From the NCBI GenBank assembly GCA_023229865.1, contig JALNYL010000002.1, positions 27,577 through 91,576 on the forward strand: DNA of 64,000 bases. Reading direction: 5' to 3'. A model generated the notes under the pieces. The model saw only the letters and a list, made by a program, of their open reading frames with translations, had not been told where the DNA came from and made no database searches. Shown one piece after another: positions 3,396 to 51,500 of the stretch (the first letter of the stretch is position 1; every line of letters starts with the position of its first letter). A program made the position numbers and the translations under genes. This DNA comes from Minisyncoccota bacterium. GTDB taxonomy: Bacteria; Patescibacteriota; Minisyncoccia; Phycocordibacterales; UBA1550.

Positions 3396-3436
3396 TGTTT
3401 TTAAAAGCTCCGCACGCGGAGCTTTTTCTTTTTGGT

Positions 3437-3600
3437 GCGGGTACGGCTCTCGGTCACGAGTTACTAAGCGACTTCGTCGAGTACGACTCCCTCGCTAAGT
3501 ACTCTCGACCCCGGCTCGCTGACAAGCCCTCACTTCGTTCGTCTTGTGTACCAGCTCCGCCTTTCGATTCTCCGTACCCGCACAAAATGCAAAGCCGCCA
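3437..3600 (+). repeat. tRNA-Gly-associated repeat element, copy 1 (~165 bp; second copy at 9459-9670)
   Basis: Begins GGTGCGGGTACGGCTCTCGGTCACGAG and ends CCGTACCCGCAC, a terminal inverted repeat identical to the acceptor/T-stem of the adjacent tRNA-Gly. Shares a ~95-bp core with copy 2 at ~90% identity (ctcgctaag..ggctcgctgacaagc.ctcacttcgttcgtcttgt.taccagctccgcctttcgattctcc). Confidence 0.6.
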
Positions 3601-3628
3601 AAACAAAAGTTTTGGCGGCTGCATTTTG

Positions 3629-3699
3629 TGCGGGTACGGAGAATCGAACTCCGGTATACTGCTTGGAAGGCAGTCATTCTACCATTAAACTATACCCGC
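3629..3699 (-). tRNA. tRNA-Gly (anticodon UCC)
   Basis: Reverse complement reads GCGGGTATAGTTTAATGGTAGAATGACTGCCTTCCAAGCAGTATACCGGAGTTCGATTCTCCGTACCCGCA. The cloverleaf is intact with T-loop TTCGATT and anticodon loop CTTCCAA (anticodon TCC). CCA is not encoded. Confidence 0.85.
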
Positions 3700-3884
3700 A
3701 AGCGAGTGACAAAATGAAAAAGTTTACTTGTTCATTTTTCGCGAGCGCCGCGGGTATAAGTACTCTTATACCCGCAAACCTCACTCATATACCCGCGGCA
3801 CCTATTCAATACCTGCCTTTCAGCAAGTAACGACACAATAGCAGAAATCGTCCAATTTCGCAATTCCCAAAAGGCACTAATCCC

Positions 3885-8909: not shown

Positions 8910-9320
8910 TTATTTTGTTGGAAAAACTTGCTTGGAAGGGAAACCTTCGTGATGATCCCAGACTGTAGCAAAAATTTCACTCTTGTTCACCCCTTCGTTA
9001 TCAATCATTTGGACGATCTGATCTCGCTGATTATGATTGTAGATGTATATCTCTTCACTACACATTGGACAAATCAAATGACAAACCCTTGTATCGTTCA
9101 TGCTGTGGTCGCCACCATCGCTACAGCCATGAGGCCTGTTGTATCGATGCTCTTGAACAAAACCCCAGTTCTTGAGCTGACACGCCGCATGGCACGAAGG
9201 ACAGCCAATAACTCTTTTTCTTATAACGGCAACTTTGCCTTCGTGGTTTTTTGCTTTAAACAACTCGAAGGCTCGAGTTTCGCGTTCGAGTTCGCGATTC
9301 AACTTCTGGAGCTTATTCAT
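8910..9320 (-). CDS. Cys/His-rich zinc-finger protein, possibly an HNH-type nuclease
   Basis: 136 aa. CPSCH..C at the N-terminal side and CHLICPMC at the C-terminal side bracket HRYNRPHGCSDGGDHSMND. The His/Asn/Asp spacing is reminiscent of HNH. The N-terminus is a coiled coil. Confidence 0.3.
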   Translation of the reverse strand: MNKLQKLNRELERETRAFELFKAKNHEGKVAVIRKRVIGCPSCHAACQLKNWGFVQEHRYNRPHGCSDGGDHSMNDTRVCHLICPMCSEEIYIYNHNQRDQIVQMIDNEGVNKSEIFATVWDHHEGFPSKQVFPTK

Positions 9321-9458: not shown

Positions 9459-9670
9459 TGCGGGTAGGGCTCTCGGTCACGAGGGAAACACGAATCGTGC
9501 GCTACTCGCGCAAAGTTTACTTGTCGAGAAACAACAGGAGAATCGGGGTCAAGTTTCTAAGCTCGTAAACTCGCTAAGAACTTTCTCCCCGGGCTCGCTG
9601 ACAAGCACTCACTTCGTTCGTCTTGTATACCAGCTCCGCCTTTCGATTCTCCCTACCCGCTACAAAATGC
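9459..9670 (+). repeat. tRNA-Gly-associated repeat element, copy 2 (~212 bp)
   Basis: Begins ATGCGGGTAGGGCTCTCGGTCACGAG and ends CCCTACCCGC. These termini match the acceptor of the adjacent tRNA-Gly(GCC). Same conserved core as copy 1, with a longer internal insert. Confidence 0.6.
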
Positions 9671-9708
9671 AACAGCGCCGAAACATATGTTTCGGCGCTG
9701 GCGTTTTG

Positions 9709-9779
9709 TGCGGGTAGGGAGAATCGAACTCCCGTCTCGTCCTTGGCAAGGACGCATTCTACCACTAAACCATACCCGC
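9709..9779 (-). tRNA. tRNA-Gly (anticodon GCC)
   Basis: Reverse complement reads GCGGGTATGGTTTAGTGGTAGAATGCGTCCTTGCCAAGGACGAGACGGGAGTTCGATTCTCCCTACCCGCA. Anticodon loop TTGCCAA. Confidence 0.85.
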
Positions 9780-10124
9780 AAATTATCAATATCGTTTTAA
9801 AGTATAGGCTTTTCGCCAGCGCTTTATAACAATTCCTAGTATACAGATTTTTAAACTTTTTGGAAGAGGGGAGGGGGGTTTATGAGAAACACATGCGAAA
9901 TGTTTCATGAATAACATAGGGTTGCCAGGATTCGGCTCGCCTTACGGCCGAGACCATCCATTTTAATAGTCGTTGCACTCCTTTAAAATGGTGGGGTCAC
10001 GATAAATCTAGGACACTGCGATTTTAGCGGGTTGAGTACAACCCAAAAAAATCGGGAGCCTACGGTTCGAATCCTGGCGGGAGCACAAAAACGAAAAAAT
10101 CGCCATCGGGCGATTTCGTTTTTG

Positions 10125-14362: not shown

Positions 14363-15349
14363 TTATTCCTCCCTGCTCTTCCCGTGAAACTTCTTGTGTA
14401 CGTTGCGAAGCTCACTATCCGTAACGTGTGTATATATCTGCGTCGTAGAAATATTTGAGTGGCCGAGCATCATTTGTACCGAGCGAATATCAGCGCCGTT
14501 ATAAAGAAGGTCGGTTGCAAACGAGTGACGCAAGATGTGGGGTGTCACCTTATCCATGATGCCAGCCTTTGCTGCATAGTGTTTCACCATACGTTCAATC
14601 GAGCGGGGAGTGAGACGAAGTGAGCCATCGTCTCGTGCCTTATCGCTCGCAAAAAGCGCATCGTCCATATCTTTTCTCTTTTTCAAATATGCTGCGATTG
14701 CAGTCTTTGCCTCATCAGAGAGAAACACCACGCGAACTTTCTCTCCCTTACCACGCACGGATATTTCATCGCGGGTAAGATCAATATCGCGCTGAAGCGC
14801 GCAAAGCTCTGAGAGACGAAGGCCGGTCGAGAAAAAGAGCTCGAGAATAGCCTTGTCGCGAAACTCTTTTACCGAGTCACCACTTGGTGCAGCGAGGAGG
14901 CGATGGAGGTCTTGAACACTCAGTAGGTCGATAGTGCGCTCTGCAACCTTCGCAAGTTCAATCTTTTCAGGCGAATACGACTCAACACCACGCTTGCGTA
15001 AATATTTGAGAAAGCTACGAATAGCAATCAAGTAATAGTTTTGAGTTTTCTTTTTGAGTGTTTCATGACGACCCTCGCGCACACCTGACTCTTGTCTGTT
15101 GAGCCAGAGACGGAAAGTACGAATGAGATCATCGGTAACATCGCTTGGCTCCTTCGCCCCACTCGCAGTGAGGAAGCGAGTGAGGTAGCGCTCGTAGTTC
15201 TCGATAGTCTTCAAGCTTCGCCCGCGCTCAATCTCCAAGTACTCAAGATACTGTCGTGCGTAGTTGCCGAGGGTGCTTTGAGGAATATTGTGCGACATAT
15301 ATATCATTATAGTACACTCACGCGCGCGAAGTAAGCAAACGTTTTGCAA
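14363..15349 (-). CDS. xerC: Tyrosine recombinase XerC/XerD family
   Basis: 328 aa. C-terminal catalytic region HILRHSFATDLLYNGADIRSVQMMLGHSNISTTQIYTHV carrying the R..H..R..Y residues. N-terminal SAM-like core-binding domain. Confidence 0.85.
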   Translation of the reverse strand: MQNVCLLRARECTIMIYMSHNIPQSTLGNYARQYLEYLEIERGRSLKTIENYERYLTRFLTASGAKEPSDVTDDLIRTFRLWLNRQESGVREGRHETLKKKTQNYYLIAIRSFLKYLRKRGVESYSPEKIELAKVAERTIDLLSVQDLHRLLAAPSGDSVKEFRDKAILELFFSTGLRLSELCALQRDIDLTRDEISVRGKGEKVRVVFLSDEAKTAIAAYLKKRKDMDDALFASDKARDDGSLRLTPRSIERMVKHYAAKAGIMDKVTPHILRHSFATDLLYNGADIRSVQMMLGHSNISTTQIYTHVTDSELRNVHKKFHGKSREE

Positions 15350-46943: not shown

Positions 46944-47004
46944 CCACATTATAAAAACCGCCGAGCACCTGTCTGGTGCTCGGCGGTTTTTATAATGTGG
47001 CTAC
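46940..47004. terminator. Stop-to-stop perfect palindrome / bidirectional terminator between convergent ORF 45567-46943 and yidC
   Basis: gTAGccacattataaaaaccgccgagcacc-tgtc-tggtgctcggcggtttttataatgtggCTAc. A perfect ~30-bp arm palindrome that includes both genes' stop codons. Confidence 0.65.
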
Positions 47005-47729
47005 TTAATAGCCTCTTTCGCCATCTTCTTTACATAGAGCTCATGAGCAATCGAGAACATGTTGCTTGTTGCCCAATAAAGCGCGATTGCCGCTGAAATA
47101 GAGTACGAGATACCAAACACGATCACGGGAAGCACGTAGCGCATCTGAACATTCATGCTGCGCGCAAAGTCATCCTTGAATGATGGTTTCGCATCCTTGT
47201 CGGCCGGAGCCATTGGAGGAATAGAGAGTTTGATTTGATAATACTGCGTAACGGCTGCGAGAAGAGCAAGGACGCCACTCTTTGCCGAAAGCAAAACCCC
47301 CAAGAACATCATGCTTATTGCCTCAGGAAGGTGAATGAATGAGTAAAGATGTTCCGCGTTAAGATTGGGGAGTCCTTTAAAGAACACAAAGTAGAGCGCA
47401 AAGATAATAGGGAGCTGTACCACGATGAGAAGACAGCCGGAAAGGGGATTAACTCCATGTTCCTTGTAAAACTCCATCATCTTGCGCGCCTGTTCTTGCT
47501 TGTCGTCCTTGTGCTTTTCCTTGATCTTCTCAAGGTGTGGCGCGAGTTCGCGCATCTTTGCCTGAGAAACAACTTGCTTGTGTGAAAGAGGGAGGAGTGC
47601 TCCGCGGACTACAATTGTTAATAAAATAATCGCAACACCAACGTTTGCTCCCGGGACGGTCGAGATAATAAAAACGAGGGTGTTATAAAGTGGCTGATAT
47701 AAAAATGTTGAAAAAATTCCTGGTTCCAT
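47001..47729 (-). CDS. yidC: Membrane protein insertase YidC (short Oxa1-type)
   Basis: 242 aa, 5 TM helices. Conserved order yidC-yidD-rnpA-rpmH. Confidence 0.8.
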   Translation of the reverse strand: MEPGIFSTFLYQPLYNTLVFIISTVPGANVGVAIILLTIVVRGALLPLSHKQVVSQAKMRELAPHLEKIKEKHKDDKQEQARKMMEFYKEHGVNPLSGCLLIVVQLPIIFALYFVFFKGLPNLNAEHLYSFIHLPEAISMMFLGVLLSAKSGVLALLAAVTQYYQIKLSIPPMAPADKDAKPSFKDDFARSMNVQMRYVLPVIVFGISYSISAAIALYWATSNMFSIAHELYVKKMAKEAIK

Positions 47730-47761
47730 TCGAGTATCTTACCGCGAATAACCCCTCTTTG

Positions 47762-47992
47762 CTAGGGGAGTGGATCTATGTGATTCTTTTGCCAAGGGTG
47801 ACAGCGGAGGATACGACGCGCCCCCAGGAAAACGCCCTTAAAAACACCGTATTTCAAAACCGCCTGCTTGGTATACTCAGAGCACGTAGGATAAAAAACG
47901 CAGGTCGTTCCTTTTTTAAGAGAAAACATCCCCGTATCGAGGGATAGATATTTTTGGTAGAAATTAATGAGAAAAACGACAAAATTACGCAT
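47762..47992 (-). CDS. yidD: Membrane protein insertion efficiency factor YidD
   Basis: 76 aa. CVFYPTCSEYTKQAVLKYG and RILRCHPW are YidD hallmarks. Confidence 0.85.
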   Translation of the reverse strand: MRNFVVFLINFYQKYLSLDTGMFSLKKGTTCVFYPTCSEYTKQAVLKYGVFKGVFLGARRILRCHPWQKNHIDPLP

Positions 47993-48002
47993 AAAATGAG
48001 GT

Positions 48003-48374
48003 CTATTTGAGCAGATTGGCTGTTTTAAACGCTTTTTCCATCTCTGCTTTAAGGTTTTGGAAGGTTTCTTTCTTTGCTTCTATTTTTGGATAGATAACAA
48101 CAGTTGTGGAACCTTCAATTTGCTTTAAAATAGGGGCTACGAGGTCATAAAAGCGCCTGCGGAGAGTATTTCTGTCTACTGCTGTCTTGGCTGTCTTTTT
48201 TGAAACAACAACAGAAACACGGCTTATTTCTGACTCTTTTCCTCCCTTTTTATAGAAAACAGCGGTAAAAAGCTTTTTGTCTACGTCCGAAACGCGCTTC
48301 TGGGAAAGCGGAAATCCCTTCACGTTCTGTGAAGGGAATTCTTTTCTAGATATACGGTTCTTACGGGGAAGCAT
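48003..48374 (-). CDS. rnpA: Ribonuclease P protein component
   Basis: 123 aa. Basic protein with KNRISRKEF and RNTLRRRFYD RnpA motifs. Confidence 0.85.
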   Translation of the reverse strand: MLPRKNRISRKEFPSQNVKGFPLSQKRVSDVDKKLFTAVFYKKGGKESEISRVSVVVSKKTAKTAVDRNTLRRRFYDLVAPILKQIEGSTTVVIYPKIEAKKETFQNLKAEMEKAFKTANLLK

Positions 48375-48394
48375 AGTGTTACCCCAAAAAGGGA

Positions 48395-48532
48395 CTAAAC
48401 TGTTGTGAGACGCTTGCGACCCTTTTGGCGGCGAGCTTTCAAAACATCACGTCCACTTTTGGTTTCTGAACGAACGAGAAAACCATGCGTTGTTGCGCGC
48501 TTTTTCTTCTTTGGCTGATATGTTTGAGACAT
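48395..48532 (-). CDS. rpmH: 50S ribosomal protein L34
   Basis: Not in the ORF track because it is 45 aa. Reverse-complement translation [45 protein letters not shown] matches the L34 consensus. Confidence 0.85.
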
Positions 48533-48784
48533 AGTAGAGATACCATACACCATATCTCAAAAAAAATCCAGCCCACCATTCAAAAACACCAAATTATCAA
48601 GAATTTCTTAAACTGGAGCCTTTGTCGTATAATGCGCTAACTGAGGAGCGTAAATTCTCTGTAAACATTGAGGGGAAACGCTGTCCACAAGTTATCCACA
48701 CCCTATTAACCAACTCATCCACCTCAACCCTTTCTGTATTTCTTTAACTCAGAATATAATGGAGGAACGAATTTAAATAACCGT

Positions 48785-50143
48785 ATGCAAAACAACGCAC
48801 AACTCTGGGAAAAAGCTCTTTTTGCACTCGAAGGTGAGCTTTCTCGCGCAAACTTCAGCACGTGGTTCAAAAACACCGCCATCATCAAGCAAGATGATGG
48901 GACGATCGTTATTGGTGTTCCTAATGAGTTTGTAAAGGACTGGCTCCAGAACAAATTTCACAAAACAATTCTTCATTCTCTTCGCAATCTTTCGGAGAAC
49001 GTGCGTGCGGTTGAATATTCTGTGTGCAAAATAGAGGAACCAAAAACAGAAAAGAAGTCTGTTGAAGCTCCAAAGTCCGCTCCTGTAGCAGAGCTTCCTC
49101 TTTCAAATCTTTATGTAAACAGAGAGGACGGATTAAATCCTCGCTATACTTTTGATGATTTTATTATTGGTGCGTTTAACGAACTCGCCTACGCAGCATC
49201 TCAGGCTATTCTTAAAAAAGTGGGGACCAACGTTTACAACCCTCTCTTTATCTATGGAAATACCGGGCTCGGCAAAACACACCTCATTCAAGCAATCGGT
49301 AATGAGGTAAAGAAACACTATCCTAATAAACGCGTGTTTTACACGACGTCTGAAAAATTTTCTGTTGACTACATCAACTCAGTAGGGCAGGGGTCAAAAG
49401 CTATGGCGGCATTTAAAAACAAGTACCGCGTGTATGATCTTTTGATTATGGATGACATTCAATTTTTGTCGAACAAAGAAAAAACTCAGGAAGAGCTTTT
49501 CCATATTTTTAATGAGCTCTATCACAACAATAAGCAGATTATTTTCTCATCTGATAAACACCCTAATTACATCCCAGCTCTTGAGTCACGTCTCAAGTCT
49601 CGTTTTAGTGCGGGAATGATTGTTGATGTTCAGGAACCAGAATATGAATCACGCCTCGCTATTCTTCGTGCGAAAGCAGAGACACAAAAGTTTTTCCCTC
49701 CTCAAGAAATTATTGAGTATCTCGCTTCTTCCGTTCAGGGAAACATTCGTGAACTCGAAGGACTTTTGAATGGCATCGTTTGTCAGTCAGAACTTAAAAA
49801 CAGAAATCTCACCCTTAATGAGATAAAACCTTTTATCAAAAATACCTCAAAGCCTAAAAAACTCTTGTCAGTAAAGGAGATTGTAAAGGTTATTTCTGAT
49901 TTCTATAACATTGAAGAATCTTTCGTCTATGATAAAACGAGACGAAAGGAGGTTTTGAAGCCTCGACAAATTGCGATGTTTATTCTTCGCGAAGACTTCA
50001 ATATCTCATACCCAACAATAGGACAGAAGCTCGGTGGGCGAGATCATACCACCGTGATGCACTCCTGTGAGAAAGTGAAAGAGGATATTAAAAATGATCT
50101 CTCTCTTATGCAGGAAGTGGATCAGATACGCGCAATGTTTTAA
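48785..50143 (+). CDS. dnaA: Chromosomal replication initiator protein DnaA
   Basis: 452 aa. AAA+ Walker A GNTGLGKTHLIQAIGN. Sensor/box motifs. C-terminal DNA-binding domain GQKLGGRDHTTVMHSCEKV. Confidence 0.95.
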   Translation: MQNNAQLWEKALFALEGELSRANFSTWFKNTAIIKQDDGTIVIGVPNEFVKDWLQNKFHKTILHSLRNLSENVRAVEYSVCKIEEPKTEKKSVEAPKSAPVAELPLSNLYVNREDGLNPRYTFDDFIIGAFNELAYAASQAILKKVGTNVYNPLFIYGNTGLGKTHLIQAIGNEVKKHYPNKRVFYTTSEKFSVDYINSVGQGSKAMAAFKNKYRVYDLLIMDDIQFLSNKEKTQEELFHIFNELYHNNKQIIFSSDKHPNYIPALESRLKSRFSAGMIVDVQEPEYESRLAILRAKAETQKFFPPQEIIEYLASSVQGNIRELEGLLNGIVCQSELKNRNLTLNEIKPFIKNTSKPKKLLSVKEIVKVISDFYNIEESFVYDKTRRKEVLKPRQIAMFILREDFNISYPTIGQKLGGRDHTTVMHSCEKVKEDIKNDLSLMQEVDQIRAMF

Positions 50144-50399
50144 TTTATTATTTTAAACCCTGTGTACTACTTGTGGATAAATTTAAAAACGAGTGTGAAT
50201 AAATCCTCATAACATTTATAAAAAACATTATGAAAAAAGTTTATAAACAATTCCAAAAAAGTTATCCACAGAAATTGATAATGGATGTAGTTAAAATAAG
50301 TAGTAAACAAAAGGAAATTAAAGAGTTATCCACTTATCCACATCTATAGTATTAAAAATAAGTATTTATATAAATAATAATAAACACCTTTAAAAGAAT
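50144..50399. promoter_or_regulatory. Putative oriC (dnaA-dnaN intergenic): DnaA-box cluster plus AT-rich unwinding element
   Basis: TGTGGATAA at 50173 (reverse-complement TTATCCACA). GTTATCCACA at 50263. Tandem GTTATCCACTTATCCACA at ~50328. Followed by a highly AT-rich stretch atagtattaaaaataagtatttatataaataataataaacacc. Additional boxes lie upstream of dnaA (TGTCCACAAGTTATCCACA at ~48683). Confidence 0.65.
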
Positions 50400-51500
50400 A
50401 TGAACTTCACTTGTAATAGAGAAACTCTTCAAAAATATATAACCAACGCCGAGAGGGTTACAGGGAAGAATTCATCACTTCCTATTCTCAGTTCTGTTTT
50501 GATTGCTACAAATGGGAAGTCTTTAGTTATTCGTTCAACCAATCTCGAAGTAGGAGTTGAGTTTCAAATTCCTGCTGAAATAAAAGAAGAAGGAAGTGTT
50601 GCTGTTTCAGGATCTCTTTTTTCAAATATTCTTATGAGTATTCCTGATGAAGAATCAGTTACCGTTTCTGTAAAAGATAGTGTTTGTAAAATAATAACCA
50701 AAACAAAAAATATCACGGTCAAAGGACTTCTTCCTGATGATTTTCCTACTATCCCGGTGATTAATGAAGGAGAAAGTTTTACGATTCAATCACAGGTTTT
50801 TATTCAAGGAGTTAAATCAGTTCTTATGAGTGCTGCTATTTCTGATATTAAACCAGAGATTTCAAGCGTATATGTGTATCAAAAAGAGAAGAGCTTGGTA
50901 TTTGTCGCTACGGACTCTTTCCGTCTCGCTGAGAAGAAAATAGACTACAACGGAGAGGAACTTTCTCAAGGAGTTATTATTCCTGTAAAAAATATTATGG
51001 AAATAGTAAAACTTTTTGATGGAGTTATGGAAAACATACTCTTTAAAATAACAAAAACACAGATTTCTTGTGTTAGTAAATCGGTATATGTAACATCACG
51101 CGTTATTCAAGGGGTTTATCCAGACTATGAACAGATTCTTCCTAAAAATAACACTACGGAAATAGTGATGTTAAAACAAGATCTTATTAATACTCTTAAA
51201 CTCTCAACTCTTTTTTCGGATAAATTTAATAAAATTCAGTTTATTGTTGAACCATCTCAGAAAAAATGTTTAGTTTTTACAAAAAATTCTGATATTGGAG
51301 AAACAGAGTCAAATCTTACAGTGACGATGTCGGGAGAACCAATAGAAATATCATTAAATGGGAAACATCTCTTTGATTGTCTCAGTGTTATCGCGGAAGA
51401 TAGTATTGTAATGCAGTGTAATGGTTCAAATAAACCAGCAGTGATTCGTGGTCTTGGAGATAACTCATTTGTGTATCTCACTATGCCACTTACTAAATAA
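50400..51500 (+). CDS. dnaN: DNA polymerase III beta subunit (sliding clamp)
   Basis: 366 aa. Three-domain beta-clamp pattern. Sits immediately downstream of dnaA/oriC. Confidence 0.9.
   Translation: MNFTCNRETLQKYITNAERVTGKNSSLPILSSVLIATNGKSLVIRSTNLEVGVEFQIPAEIKEEGSVAVSGSLFSNILMSIPDEESVTVSVKDSVCKIITKTKNITVKGLLPDDFPTIPVINEGESFTIQSQVFIQGVKSVLMSAAISDIKPEISSVYVYQKEKSLVFVATDSFRLAEKKIDYNGEELSQGVIIPVKNIMEIVKLFDGVMENILFKITKTQISCVSKSVYVTSRVIQGVYPDYEQILPKNNTTEIVMLKQDLINTLKLSTLFSDKFNKIQFIVEPSQKKCLVFTKNSDIGETESNLTVTMSGEPIEISLNGKHLFDCLSVIAEDSIVMQCNGSNKPAVIRGLGDNSFVYLTMPLTK

Follow-up and report, generated by a model that had tools for sequence, protein, structure and literature searches.

The tRNA-Gly(UCC) locus and its neighbours

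The window, i.e. the whole 64-kb stretch of DNA that was analysed, carries on its minus strand an intact tRNA-Gly(UCC) gene, recognized both by ARAGORN and by Rfam as the first-pass annotation of this DNA had proposed (Table 1). The flanking genes encode RNase Y, a two-component system, a cation-efflux protein, a UPF0102 protein and a CCA-adding enzyme. Relatives of this last enzyme assign the window to Paceibacteria (Candidatus Yonathbacteria-like CPR bacteria). Read in the sense of the tRNA, the locus (locus A) is composed of the tRNA with its 3′ segment X, a trailer with a terminator, an antisense segment alpha, a conserved core, and a segment beta followed by CCA and the native terminator. 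Promoter scans returned nothing usable.

Table 1. Positions of the tRNA genes, of the inserts and of their parts in the window.
Feature	Position	Strand	Basis or remark
Locus A
tRNA-Gly(UCC), intact, CCA unencoded	3628/3629-3699	minus	ARAGORN; Rfam RF00005, 72.5 bits
X, tRNA 3′ segment C56-A73 (CGAUUCUCCGUACCCGCA)	3629-3646	minus	sequence, direct-repeat analysis
12-bp bidirectional intrinsic-terminator hairpin, forming the end of the X:alpha arm	3593-3620
alpha, antisense of the tRNA 3′ segment and trailer	3563-3591	minus	29 nt, 100% complementary to 3620-3648
Conserved core, three-way junction	3442-3577	minus	covariance model R1, 64.1 bits, E=2e-19; alignment, covariation
Core arm H2	~3513-3561	minus
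Core arm H1	~3452-3511	minus
beta, putative displaced native tRNA 3′ end (CGAGAGCCGUACCCGCA, partly decayed), then CCA at 3433-3435	3433-3452	minus
Native terminator hairpin after beta	3403-3426		common to convergent ORF 2793-3395
Copies of tRNA 5′ end nt 1-9 (GCGGGUAUA), three	3750-3796	minus	sense 3788-3796 and 3767-3775; inverted 3750-3758
Locus B
tRNA-Gly(GCC), partner of the second copy	9709-9779	minus
Second copy	9535-9700	minus	model R1, 59 bits
Terminator	9673-9700	minus
alpha	9642-9660	minus
Core	9535-9656	minus
Truncated beta1 (CGAUUCUCC)	9537-9545	minus
Remnant of an older copy, pushed outward	9459-9536	minus	3′ half of the H1 arm, GUGAC, beta2 (CGAGAGCCCUACCCGCA, 9459-9475)
tRNA-Arg(UCG) locus
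tRNA-Arg(UCG)	10124/10125-10196	minus
Unrelated structured insert	9924-10117	minus	layout as in the Gly copies
Terminator	10096-10117	minus
alpha-like arm	10064-10096	minus
Private core	9935-10063	minus
beta-like segment (GCCAGGATTCG)	9924-9934	minus

Two 29-nt arms, 3563-3591 and 3620-3648, form a perfect palindrome around the inner terminator hairpin. This palindrome had been described earlier at 3558-3627 and as lying wholly 3′ of the tRNA; it is real, but those coordinates are wrong, and its right arm is the 3′ end of tRNA-Gly(UCC) itself, inside the gene. The ~165-bp element of the same description does start with GCGGGTACGG (3437-3446) and contains CCGTACCCGC (3572-3581). The motif GCGGGTAYR occurs seven times in the 360 bp from 3437 to 3796, in both orientations, where ~0.53 occurrences are expected per whole window, and eight copies were reached in none of 100 shuffles; the suspicion that such a series of 9-10-mers exceeds chance is borne out. 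Seen in isolation, the locus might be nothing more than a terminator of elaborate form that works in both directions, or else a palindrome or an inverted duplicate of a tRNA end that arose by chance, and the centre of the palindrome is indeed a good bidirectional terminator. However, the palindrome includes 20 nt of the tRNA body, the motif is far more frequent than chance would allow, no terminator encompasses the conserved core and, as described below, the family recurs with covariation. We give this explanation next to no credence.

The putative unit 3453-3646 folds into three consecutive arms, each almost fully paired, with z scores of -13.6 (DNA parameters) and -11.5 (RNA parameters). If circularised, it would close into a three-way junction.

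A second copy of the ~165-bp element, also anticipated by the first-pass annotation, is present at 9460-9663 beside tRNA-Gly(GCC) and is 84% identical over 212 nt. Its terminal 10-mers, GCGGGTAGGG and CCCTACCCGC, differ from those of locus A by a compensating C/G change that tracks the adjoining tRNA. The newer copy at locus B spans 9535-9726, and beyond it lies what is left of an older copy, a 3′ piece with its beta. This remnant, at 9459-9536, matches positions 9160-9230 of a related locus (L003) and indicates nested or successive insertion. Behind tRNA-Arg(UCG) the same layout encloses a different core. The alpha-like arm of this insert is a 33-nt perfect inverted copy from tRNA-Arg, and its core folds strongly (z = -5.0, 11-bp closing helix) and had no other occurrence among the loci compared. 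The tRNA-Pro gene of the window has no inverted copy. In two other loci (L008:4680-4850 and L009:2780-2930) a further core type, termed 'family 2', lies behind tRNA-Gly(UCC) and is likewise flanked by two copies of the tRNA 3′ end, one antisense and one direct. A tyrosine recombinase is encoded at 14363-15349 (minus strand) and scores 251.7 against the NCBIfam XerA/integron-integrase model (cut-off 220). It is the sole recombinase noticed in the window; its gene is ~4.6 kb away from locus B, and no repeat pair encloses it.

The 5′ side of tRNA-Gly(UCC) is also marked by copies of its own sequence. The three upstream copies reported earlier, at 3750-3758 (plus) and at 3767-3775 and 3788-3796 (both minus), are present and form a 9-12 bp hairpin ~50 nt upstream of the gene. 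Hairpins of the same type, likewise ~50 nt upstream, precede tRNA-Gly(GCC) in L013 (hairpin at ~9465-9490) and tRNA-Ala(CGC) in L064 (gene at 728-799). The first 9 nt recur within 150 nt upstream of their own gene in 18 of 302 tRNAs, compared to 0 in control windows, a pattern indicative of separate 5′-side insertions or duplications. The tRNA-Pro(UGG) gene is preceded by its own displaced 5′ fragments (nt 1 to ~32) in four loci (L013:7440-7640, L033:1650-1840, L137:2820-3006, L108:1836-1950), and in one of these fragments the D-loop is interrupted by an insert of ~75 nt. These fragments suggest a second, 5′-side kind of insertion. Upstream of a tRNA-Pro(GGG) gene, tandem 74-nt repeats (L058:540-730) each contain the first 9 nt of the tRNA.

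A folded core behind tRNA and tmRNA genes

Related copies were collected by a two-block pattern scan of metagenome contigs, which gave at least 120 stretches, and with a covariance model (R1) built from 107 sequences. The pattern scan and the model together bring the family to at least ~160 copies in Paceibacteria genomes and metagenomes. An element occurring only at the two Gly loci had been regarded in advance as just an elaborate terminator; this description is contradicted by the motif count, by the covariation of the core and by the recurrence of the family, with at least ~160 copies elsewhere. In the window itself, R1 finds the two Gly copies only (64 and 59 bits). Applied to 726 kb of related genomes it detects 31 copies, and for 29 of these a tRNA on the same strand ends 2-146 nt before the copy. 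The metagenome loci (549 kb) contribute 127 copies, with two to four in many a locus. Nearly all matches are full length (model positions 1-112) and no series of 5′-truncated copies was seen; target-primed reverse transcription was discarded for this absence. R1 had no match in Moranbacteria and Firmicutes loci. Searches for the element among 2.9 million viral contigs and in collections of phages and plasmids were likewise negative.

A tRNA gene is directly adjacent, and always co-oriented, in 98 of the 128 pattern instances. The targets among these instances cover 31 anticodons and 16 amino acids, to which the genome loci add tRNA-Lys. The instances without a called tRNA lie mostly behind tmRNA genes or behind tRNAs with group I introns. 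At L100:6016-6247, L107:986-1221 and L118:1727-1967 a group I intron is found in a tRNA gene that has the element downstream as well, so that two kinds of structured insertion meet in one tRNA gene. In L067, L074 and L076 the element follows, after ~200 nt, a conserved stretch (…ACCRCGCRC…GCGUGCGA…). It is not a tRNA, corresponds to no Rfam family and may be another stable RNA serving as target.

The element measures ~110-200 nt (~190 nt at locus A) and contains no ORF. No integrase, reverse transcriptase or transposase is found inside it, and none recurs among the neighbouring ORFs. Clustering of the neighbour genes gave housekeeping genes and five HTH/LAGLIDADG-like ORFs only. The latter (in L054, L056, L120, L107 and L050) encode related proteins of ~156-233 aa with an N-terminal HTH, the only part recognised by Pfam, and a LAGLIDADG-like motif (e.g. 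LALYWAEGYK). Four of the five ORFs lie just upstream of an element-bearing tRNA, and that of L050 is ~1.4 kb off on the opposite strand.

Pieces homologous to the element of the window adjoin tRNA-Gly and tRNA-Arg genes in Paceibacteria relatives. Comparison of the relatives reveals two end segments that always copy the adjoining tRNA, and strings conserved independently of the tRNA (GTCAC, CGACCCCGNCTCG and CTCCGNCTTTCGA in the plus-strand reading). A tRNA-derived, SINE-like origin, as once considered, does not fit, since only these two end segments copy the tRNA and the core is an unrelated three-way junction.

The core is structured on one strand. In 91 of 91 copies the tRNA-sense strand gives the better fold, by 10.7 kcal/mol on average, and G-U pairs number 191 on this strand compared to 31 on the opposite one. 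The plus-strand element of the first-pass annotation is therefore an antisense view, the plus strand is not the functional one, and a plus-strand transcript is not expected. A tRNA-like gene on the plus strand (tmRNA-like, Y-RNA-like, intron-bearing or permuted) was rejected, as it has no T-stem, ARAGORN and Rfam return nothing and the other strand is the structured one. An argument from replication strands, with the tRNA-sense strand as lagging-strand template, was dropped, since the window shows too little GC skew and its genes are not oriented as a simple dnaA origin would require. The genes yidC, dnaA and dnaN lie beside an AT-rich stretch (GC 0.36), which probably places the chromosomal replication origin at 47001-51500.

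In the tRNA sense, the order common to the family is the tRNA with X (C56-N73), a trailer that sometimes holds a terminator, an optional alpha1, an optional hairpin H3, alpha2, GAAA, helix Pa (GNC), an internal loop GGA/GA, helix Pb, arm H2, GG, arm H1 (GGUCGM...GUGACC) and beta. Alpha1 is antisense to the 3′ strand of the acceptor, alpha2 is antisense to the 3′ strand of the T-stem and to the T-loop, and beta is a second tRNA copy that starts at C56. At locus A the invariant core strings read UCGAAAG-N-CGGAG, CGAG-N-YGGGGUCG and GUGACCGA on the tRNA strand. Across the family, ~35 invariant nucleotides surround the three-way junction, which also has a conserved G-U pair and a tandem G-A motif. 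RNAalifold finds compensatory changes in 12 of 18 pairs; one core pair is AU in 40 sequences, CG in 36, GC in 24 and UA in 4. With the 28-pair structure imposed on 107 sequences, 90.7% of the cells are paired compared to 69% in shuffles. The covariation score of 0.559 compares with 0.172 for shuffled alignments, none of 500 reaching the observed value, and it falls to 0.07-0.12 when the partners are slid. The pairs of a single strand are thus kept through compensatory changes.

Boundaries of the inserted unit and signs of mobility

X and beta form a direct repeat with a sharp start at C56. The repeat measures 18-23 nt in most of 86 loci (range 18 to more than 40 nt) and usually runs to N73 and one to a few bases beyond. 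In the window it comprises X at 3629-3646 and beta at 3436-3452. At ten or more loci, the window included, CCA follows beta but not the tRNA copy, which continues with CAA or similar. In element-free relatives the encoded tRNA-CCA is directly followed by the terminator (L005). Comparison of an empty site (L006) with a filled one (L013) shows that beta retains the native trailer and the terminator common to a convergent tRNA-Arg, and that the tRNA-proximal trailer and terminator are new in the filled site. Moreover, X and beta can be told apart at 34 loci, and the better partner of alpha2 is X at 25 of them and beta at 3; in the window, 10 of 10 positions pair with X compared to 4 of 10 with beta. 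The start of the repeat at C56, the CCA after beta, the L006/L013 comparison and the match of alpha2 to X together indicate that the inserted unit consists of C56-N73, trailer, alpha and core, and that it lies between U55 and C56. Beta is then the displaced native end, in the course of decay, and X would be the regenerated end, supplied by the element. A retroviral-type primer-binding site, which the complement of ...ACCCGCACCA at 3433-3446 could evoke, was set aside, this stretch being more simply the displaced, CCA-encoding native 3′ end.

At locus A, the unit 3453-3646 would consist of a replacement 3′ end (C56-N73), a trailer with terminator, alpha and a core with two hairpin arms. Its entry between U55 and C56 would displace the original 3′ end, beta, by ~190 nt downstream. 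Because the unit sits at this position and brings a replacement 3′ end, the tRNA stays intact.

Occupancy is patchy. Ten relatives, with CCA-adding enzymes 81-90% identical to that of the window where the full enzyme could be compared, differ in the presence of the element at orthologous Gly(UCC), Gly(GCC) and Arg(UCG) genes, and most tRNAs within a genome do not carry it. Differences at orthologous tRNAs are seen even between species whose CCA-adding enzymes are 85-90% identical. Tandem arrays occur in seven loci or more. The sub-types of the H1 and H2 arms combine freely with different tRNA types. In L013, alpha and the terminator are nearly identical to those of the window, yet the acceptor stem of the tRNA is different. 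The annotators' view of a repeated small non-coding insertion tied to a tRNA 3′ end and bearing the hallmarks of integration, namely a direct repeat and patchy presence in relatives, agrees with these results.

In our reading, to which we assign a probability of roughly 0.6, locus A is one copy of a family of gene-less integrative elements of ~110-200 nt. Their target in Paceibacteria (CPR) would be the T-loop of genes for tRNA and tmRNA. The element would move as a single-stranded, three-armed molecule whose X:alpha hairpin mimics the duplex end of the tRNA gene, and a site-specific recombinase would act on it in trans. By analogy, the XerA/integron-integrase-like protein encoded at 14363-15349 is a candidate for this role. 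Several results weaken the reading of a mobile island. No mobilising enzyme is linked to the element, neither an excised form nor a precise empty/filled pair within one species was seen, and there is no match in viral, phage or plasmid sequences. Nor is it easy to reconcile ordinary integrase specificity with one core family serving more than 30 tRNA types. The ~35 invariant nucleotides, the conserved G-U pair and the tandem G-A motif make the core resemble a functional RNA more than a recombination site. Finally, a strict terminator separates the tRNA from alpha in only 23 of 86 copies, so that most copies may be co-transcribed with the tRNA. The G-U pair, the G-A motif and this low terminator count speak for an RNA form, and the strong terminator of the window, the decay of beta and the match of alpha to X for a unit that acts at the DNA level.

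The same data could be taken to describe a cis-acting RNA module of benefit to the host, co-transcribed with the tRNA or tmRNA and serving 3′-end processing, quality control or the regulation of maturation, with alpha as a guide that pairs with the 3′ half of the tRNA. The element always has one orientation and a constant distance with respect to the tRNA before it, conservation of the core is very strong, and alpha is complementary to the 3′ segment of its own tRNA at 9.3 of 10 positions. The earlier proposal of an RNA pairing with the tRNA 3′ end is literally true of alpha in this respect, but alpha is most simply an arm of the element's own hairpin. A precedent exists in the theta (HDV-like) ribozymes, which are located downstream of tRNAs in phages (PMC10879173). 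Like the element, these are conserved structured RNAs located just 3′ of tRNA genes. In contrast to them, the element has no HDV-like match, lies 30-80 nt from the tRNA, often behind a terminator, and is flanked by a duplicated tRNA end. However, the tRNA would lose its fold if alpha paired with its 3′ half, and in the window a strong terminator stands between the two. The patchy distribution among close relatives and among the tRNAs of one genome, the tandem and nested copies and the decaying beta also argue against a module maintained for the host, which we judge quite unlikely.

Relation to known elements and structured RNAs

The family is previously undescribed; literature searches found no description of the element. 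In a search of Rfam 15, which includes ribozymes, introns, riboswitches and tRNA-like RNAs, the core had no match even at E <= 10, and the matches obtained (tRNA, tmRNA and group I intron models) fell in the partner genes only. The junction was also compared by eye with hammerhead, hairpin and HDV layouts; none fits, and Rfam is negative.

The published signature of tDNA islands comprises a regenerated target with a displaced fragment, T-stem sites, tmRNA targets and tandem arrays (PMC4383910), and the attB of mycobacteriophage Ms6 lies in a T-loop (PMC1762012). As in islands of tyrosine integrases, the target gene is split and then restored by sequence carried on the element, the far end is recognizable by a 3′ fragment that was displaced and kept its direct orientation, the crossover falls in the T-stem/T-loop, tmRNA genes are targeted too and tandem arrays are formed. 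An intact tRNA or tmRNA gene and a displaced direct fragment bound the insert, and presence or absence at the same tDNA varies between related genomes. However, no integrase gene or other ORF lies inside. With 0.11-0.2 kb the element is 10-100 times smaller than these islands, which measure kilobases. It also differs from them by a covarying three-way-junction core, by an antisense copy of the target and by one core family present at more than 30 tRNA types.

The likeness to islands raises the possibility that the copies are decayed scars of integrase-carrying islands or prophages, in which attL, attR and arm sequences remained after internal deletion. The regenerated target with its displaced 3′ fragment would be as in islands (PMC4383910), and the different cores in a like layout at the Arg locus of the window and in L008 and L009 would also suit such an origin. 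However, random deletion remnants would vary in length and lose structure, whereas at least ~160 copies share one full-length core with compensatory changes. Furthermore, viral contigs, phages and plasmids yielded no full-length relative with an integrase. An origin by decay is very unlikely.

Miniature inverted-repeat elements (MITEs) are, like the present element, small, non-coding, multi-copy, patchy and presumably mobilised in trans. Their fixed inverted repeats are replaced here by ends that copy the targeted tRNA, and a short fixed-length duplication by a repeat of 18-23 nt of the tRNA 3′ end. Terminal inverted repeats common to the family and a target duplication of fixed length were both absent. 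Because its ends, the supposed inverted repeats, change with each target tRNA, the element is not a MITE, and this part of the earlier proposal falls. On the whole, the initial observation at the locus is confirmed and its first interpretation partly supported.

Group I introns occur in Patescibacteria tRNA genes and in tmRNA T-loops, most of them without a homing endonuclease gene (PMC13011429). They are, like the element, structured RNA-type insertions in T-arm genes of the common phylum, and the insertion follows a U. In contrast, the element has no group I core according to Rfam and ends in C, and it brings a duplicate 3′ exon, so that the tRNA gene is contiguous. Every partner tRNA is contiguous, and a chimera scan revealed no split tRNA gene from which the element would have to be removed. 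A group I intron was rejected for want of a matching model, for the contiguity of the gene and for the lack of split genes.

These likenesses bear on a mobility exerted by RNA. The element might be a small ribozyme or resemble an intron, enter tRNA or tmRNA transcripts at U55|C56 by reverse splicing or in another way, and reach the genome through reverse transcription, or a circle might be excised with joining of tRNA nt 1-55 to beta. The invariant nucleotides concentrated at the junction, the G-U pair, the tandem G-A motif, the site after U as with group I introns, and the majority of copies that have no strict upstream terminator would be in keeping with this. However, no ribozyme or intron family of Rfam matches even at the most permissive threshold used, the terminal C differs from the terminal G of group I introns, and the contiguous gene, with no split genes found, makes splicing unneeded. 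In addition, group II introns were not detected in Patescibacteria (PMC13011429). We consider such a route unlikely.

Integron attC sites and the attP(+) hairpin of CTX phage (IMEX elements) are folded single-stranded substrates of tyrosine recombinases. In our judgement they are the nearest mechanistic analogues of the element. Common to them are a strand-specific conserved secondary structure with variable stem sequences, tandem copies, and an inverted copy of the target site that forms, beside the regenerated site, a hairpin mimicking the duplex target. A tyrosine recombinase acting in trans would be a further common trait, proposed in the case of the element. The targets differ, the element using the T-loop of tRNA and tmRNA genes instead of attI or dif. 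For the element, both the recombinase and the single-stranded DNA form are proposals.

The integrative-element reading can be carried further, to a new class of mobile element: a protein-free folded single strand of ~200 nt, either ssDNA or catalytic RNA, that bears a hairpin replica of the target tRNA-gene end. Practically every gene for a tRNA or tmRNA would be open to it at U55|C56 and would be repaired as it enters, by means of a host Xer/integron-type recombinase or of the element's own three-way-junction core. This extension is possible, and we advance it as a tentative proposal. If the reading is correct, a gene-less island of very high abundance, defined only by a conserved folded core and a hairpin copy of its target, colonises the tRNA and tmRNA genes of CPR bacteria. 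The concept of islands, integrons and IMEX elements would then extend to a minimal and possibly self-sufficient nucleic-acid parasite. The element would also explain the tRNA-fragment 'pseudogenes' and the long palindromes that confuse the annotation of Patescibacteria. Should the core prove to be a cis-acting RNA of tRNA maturation, that would be new as well. With its ~110 conserved nt, the motif is a strong candidate for a ribozyme, or else a recombinase substrate, of a new kind.
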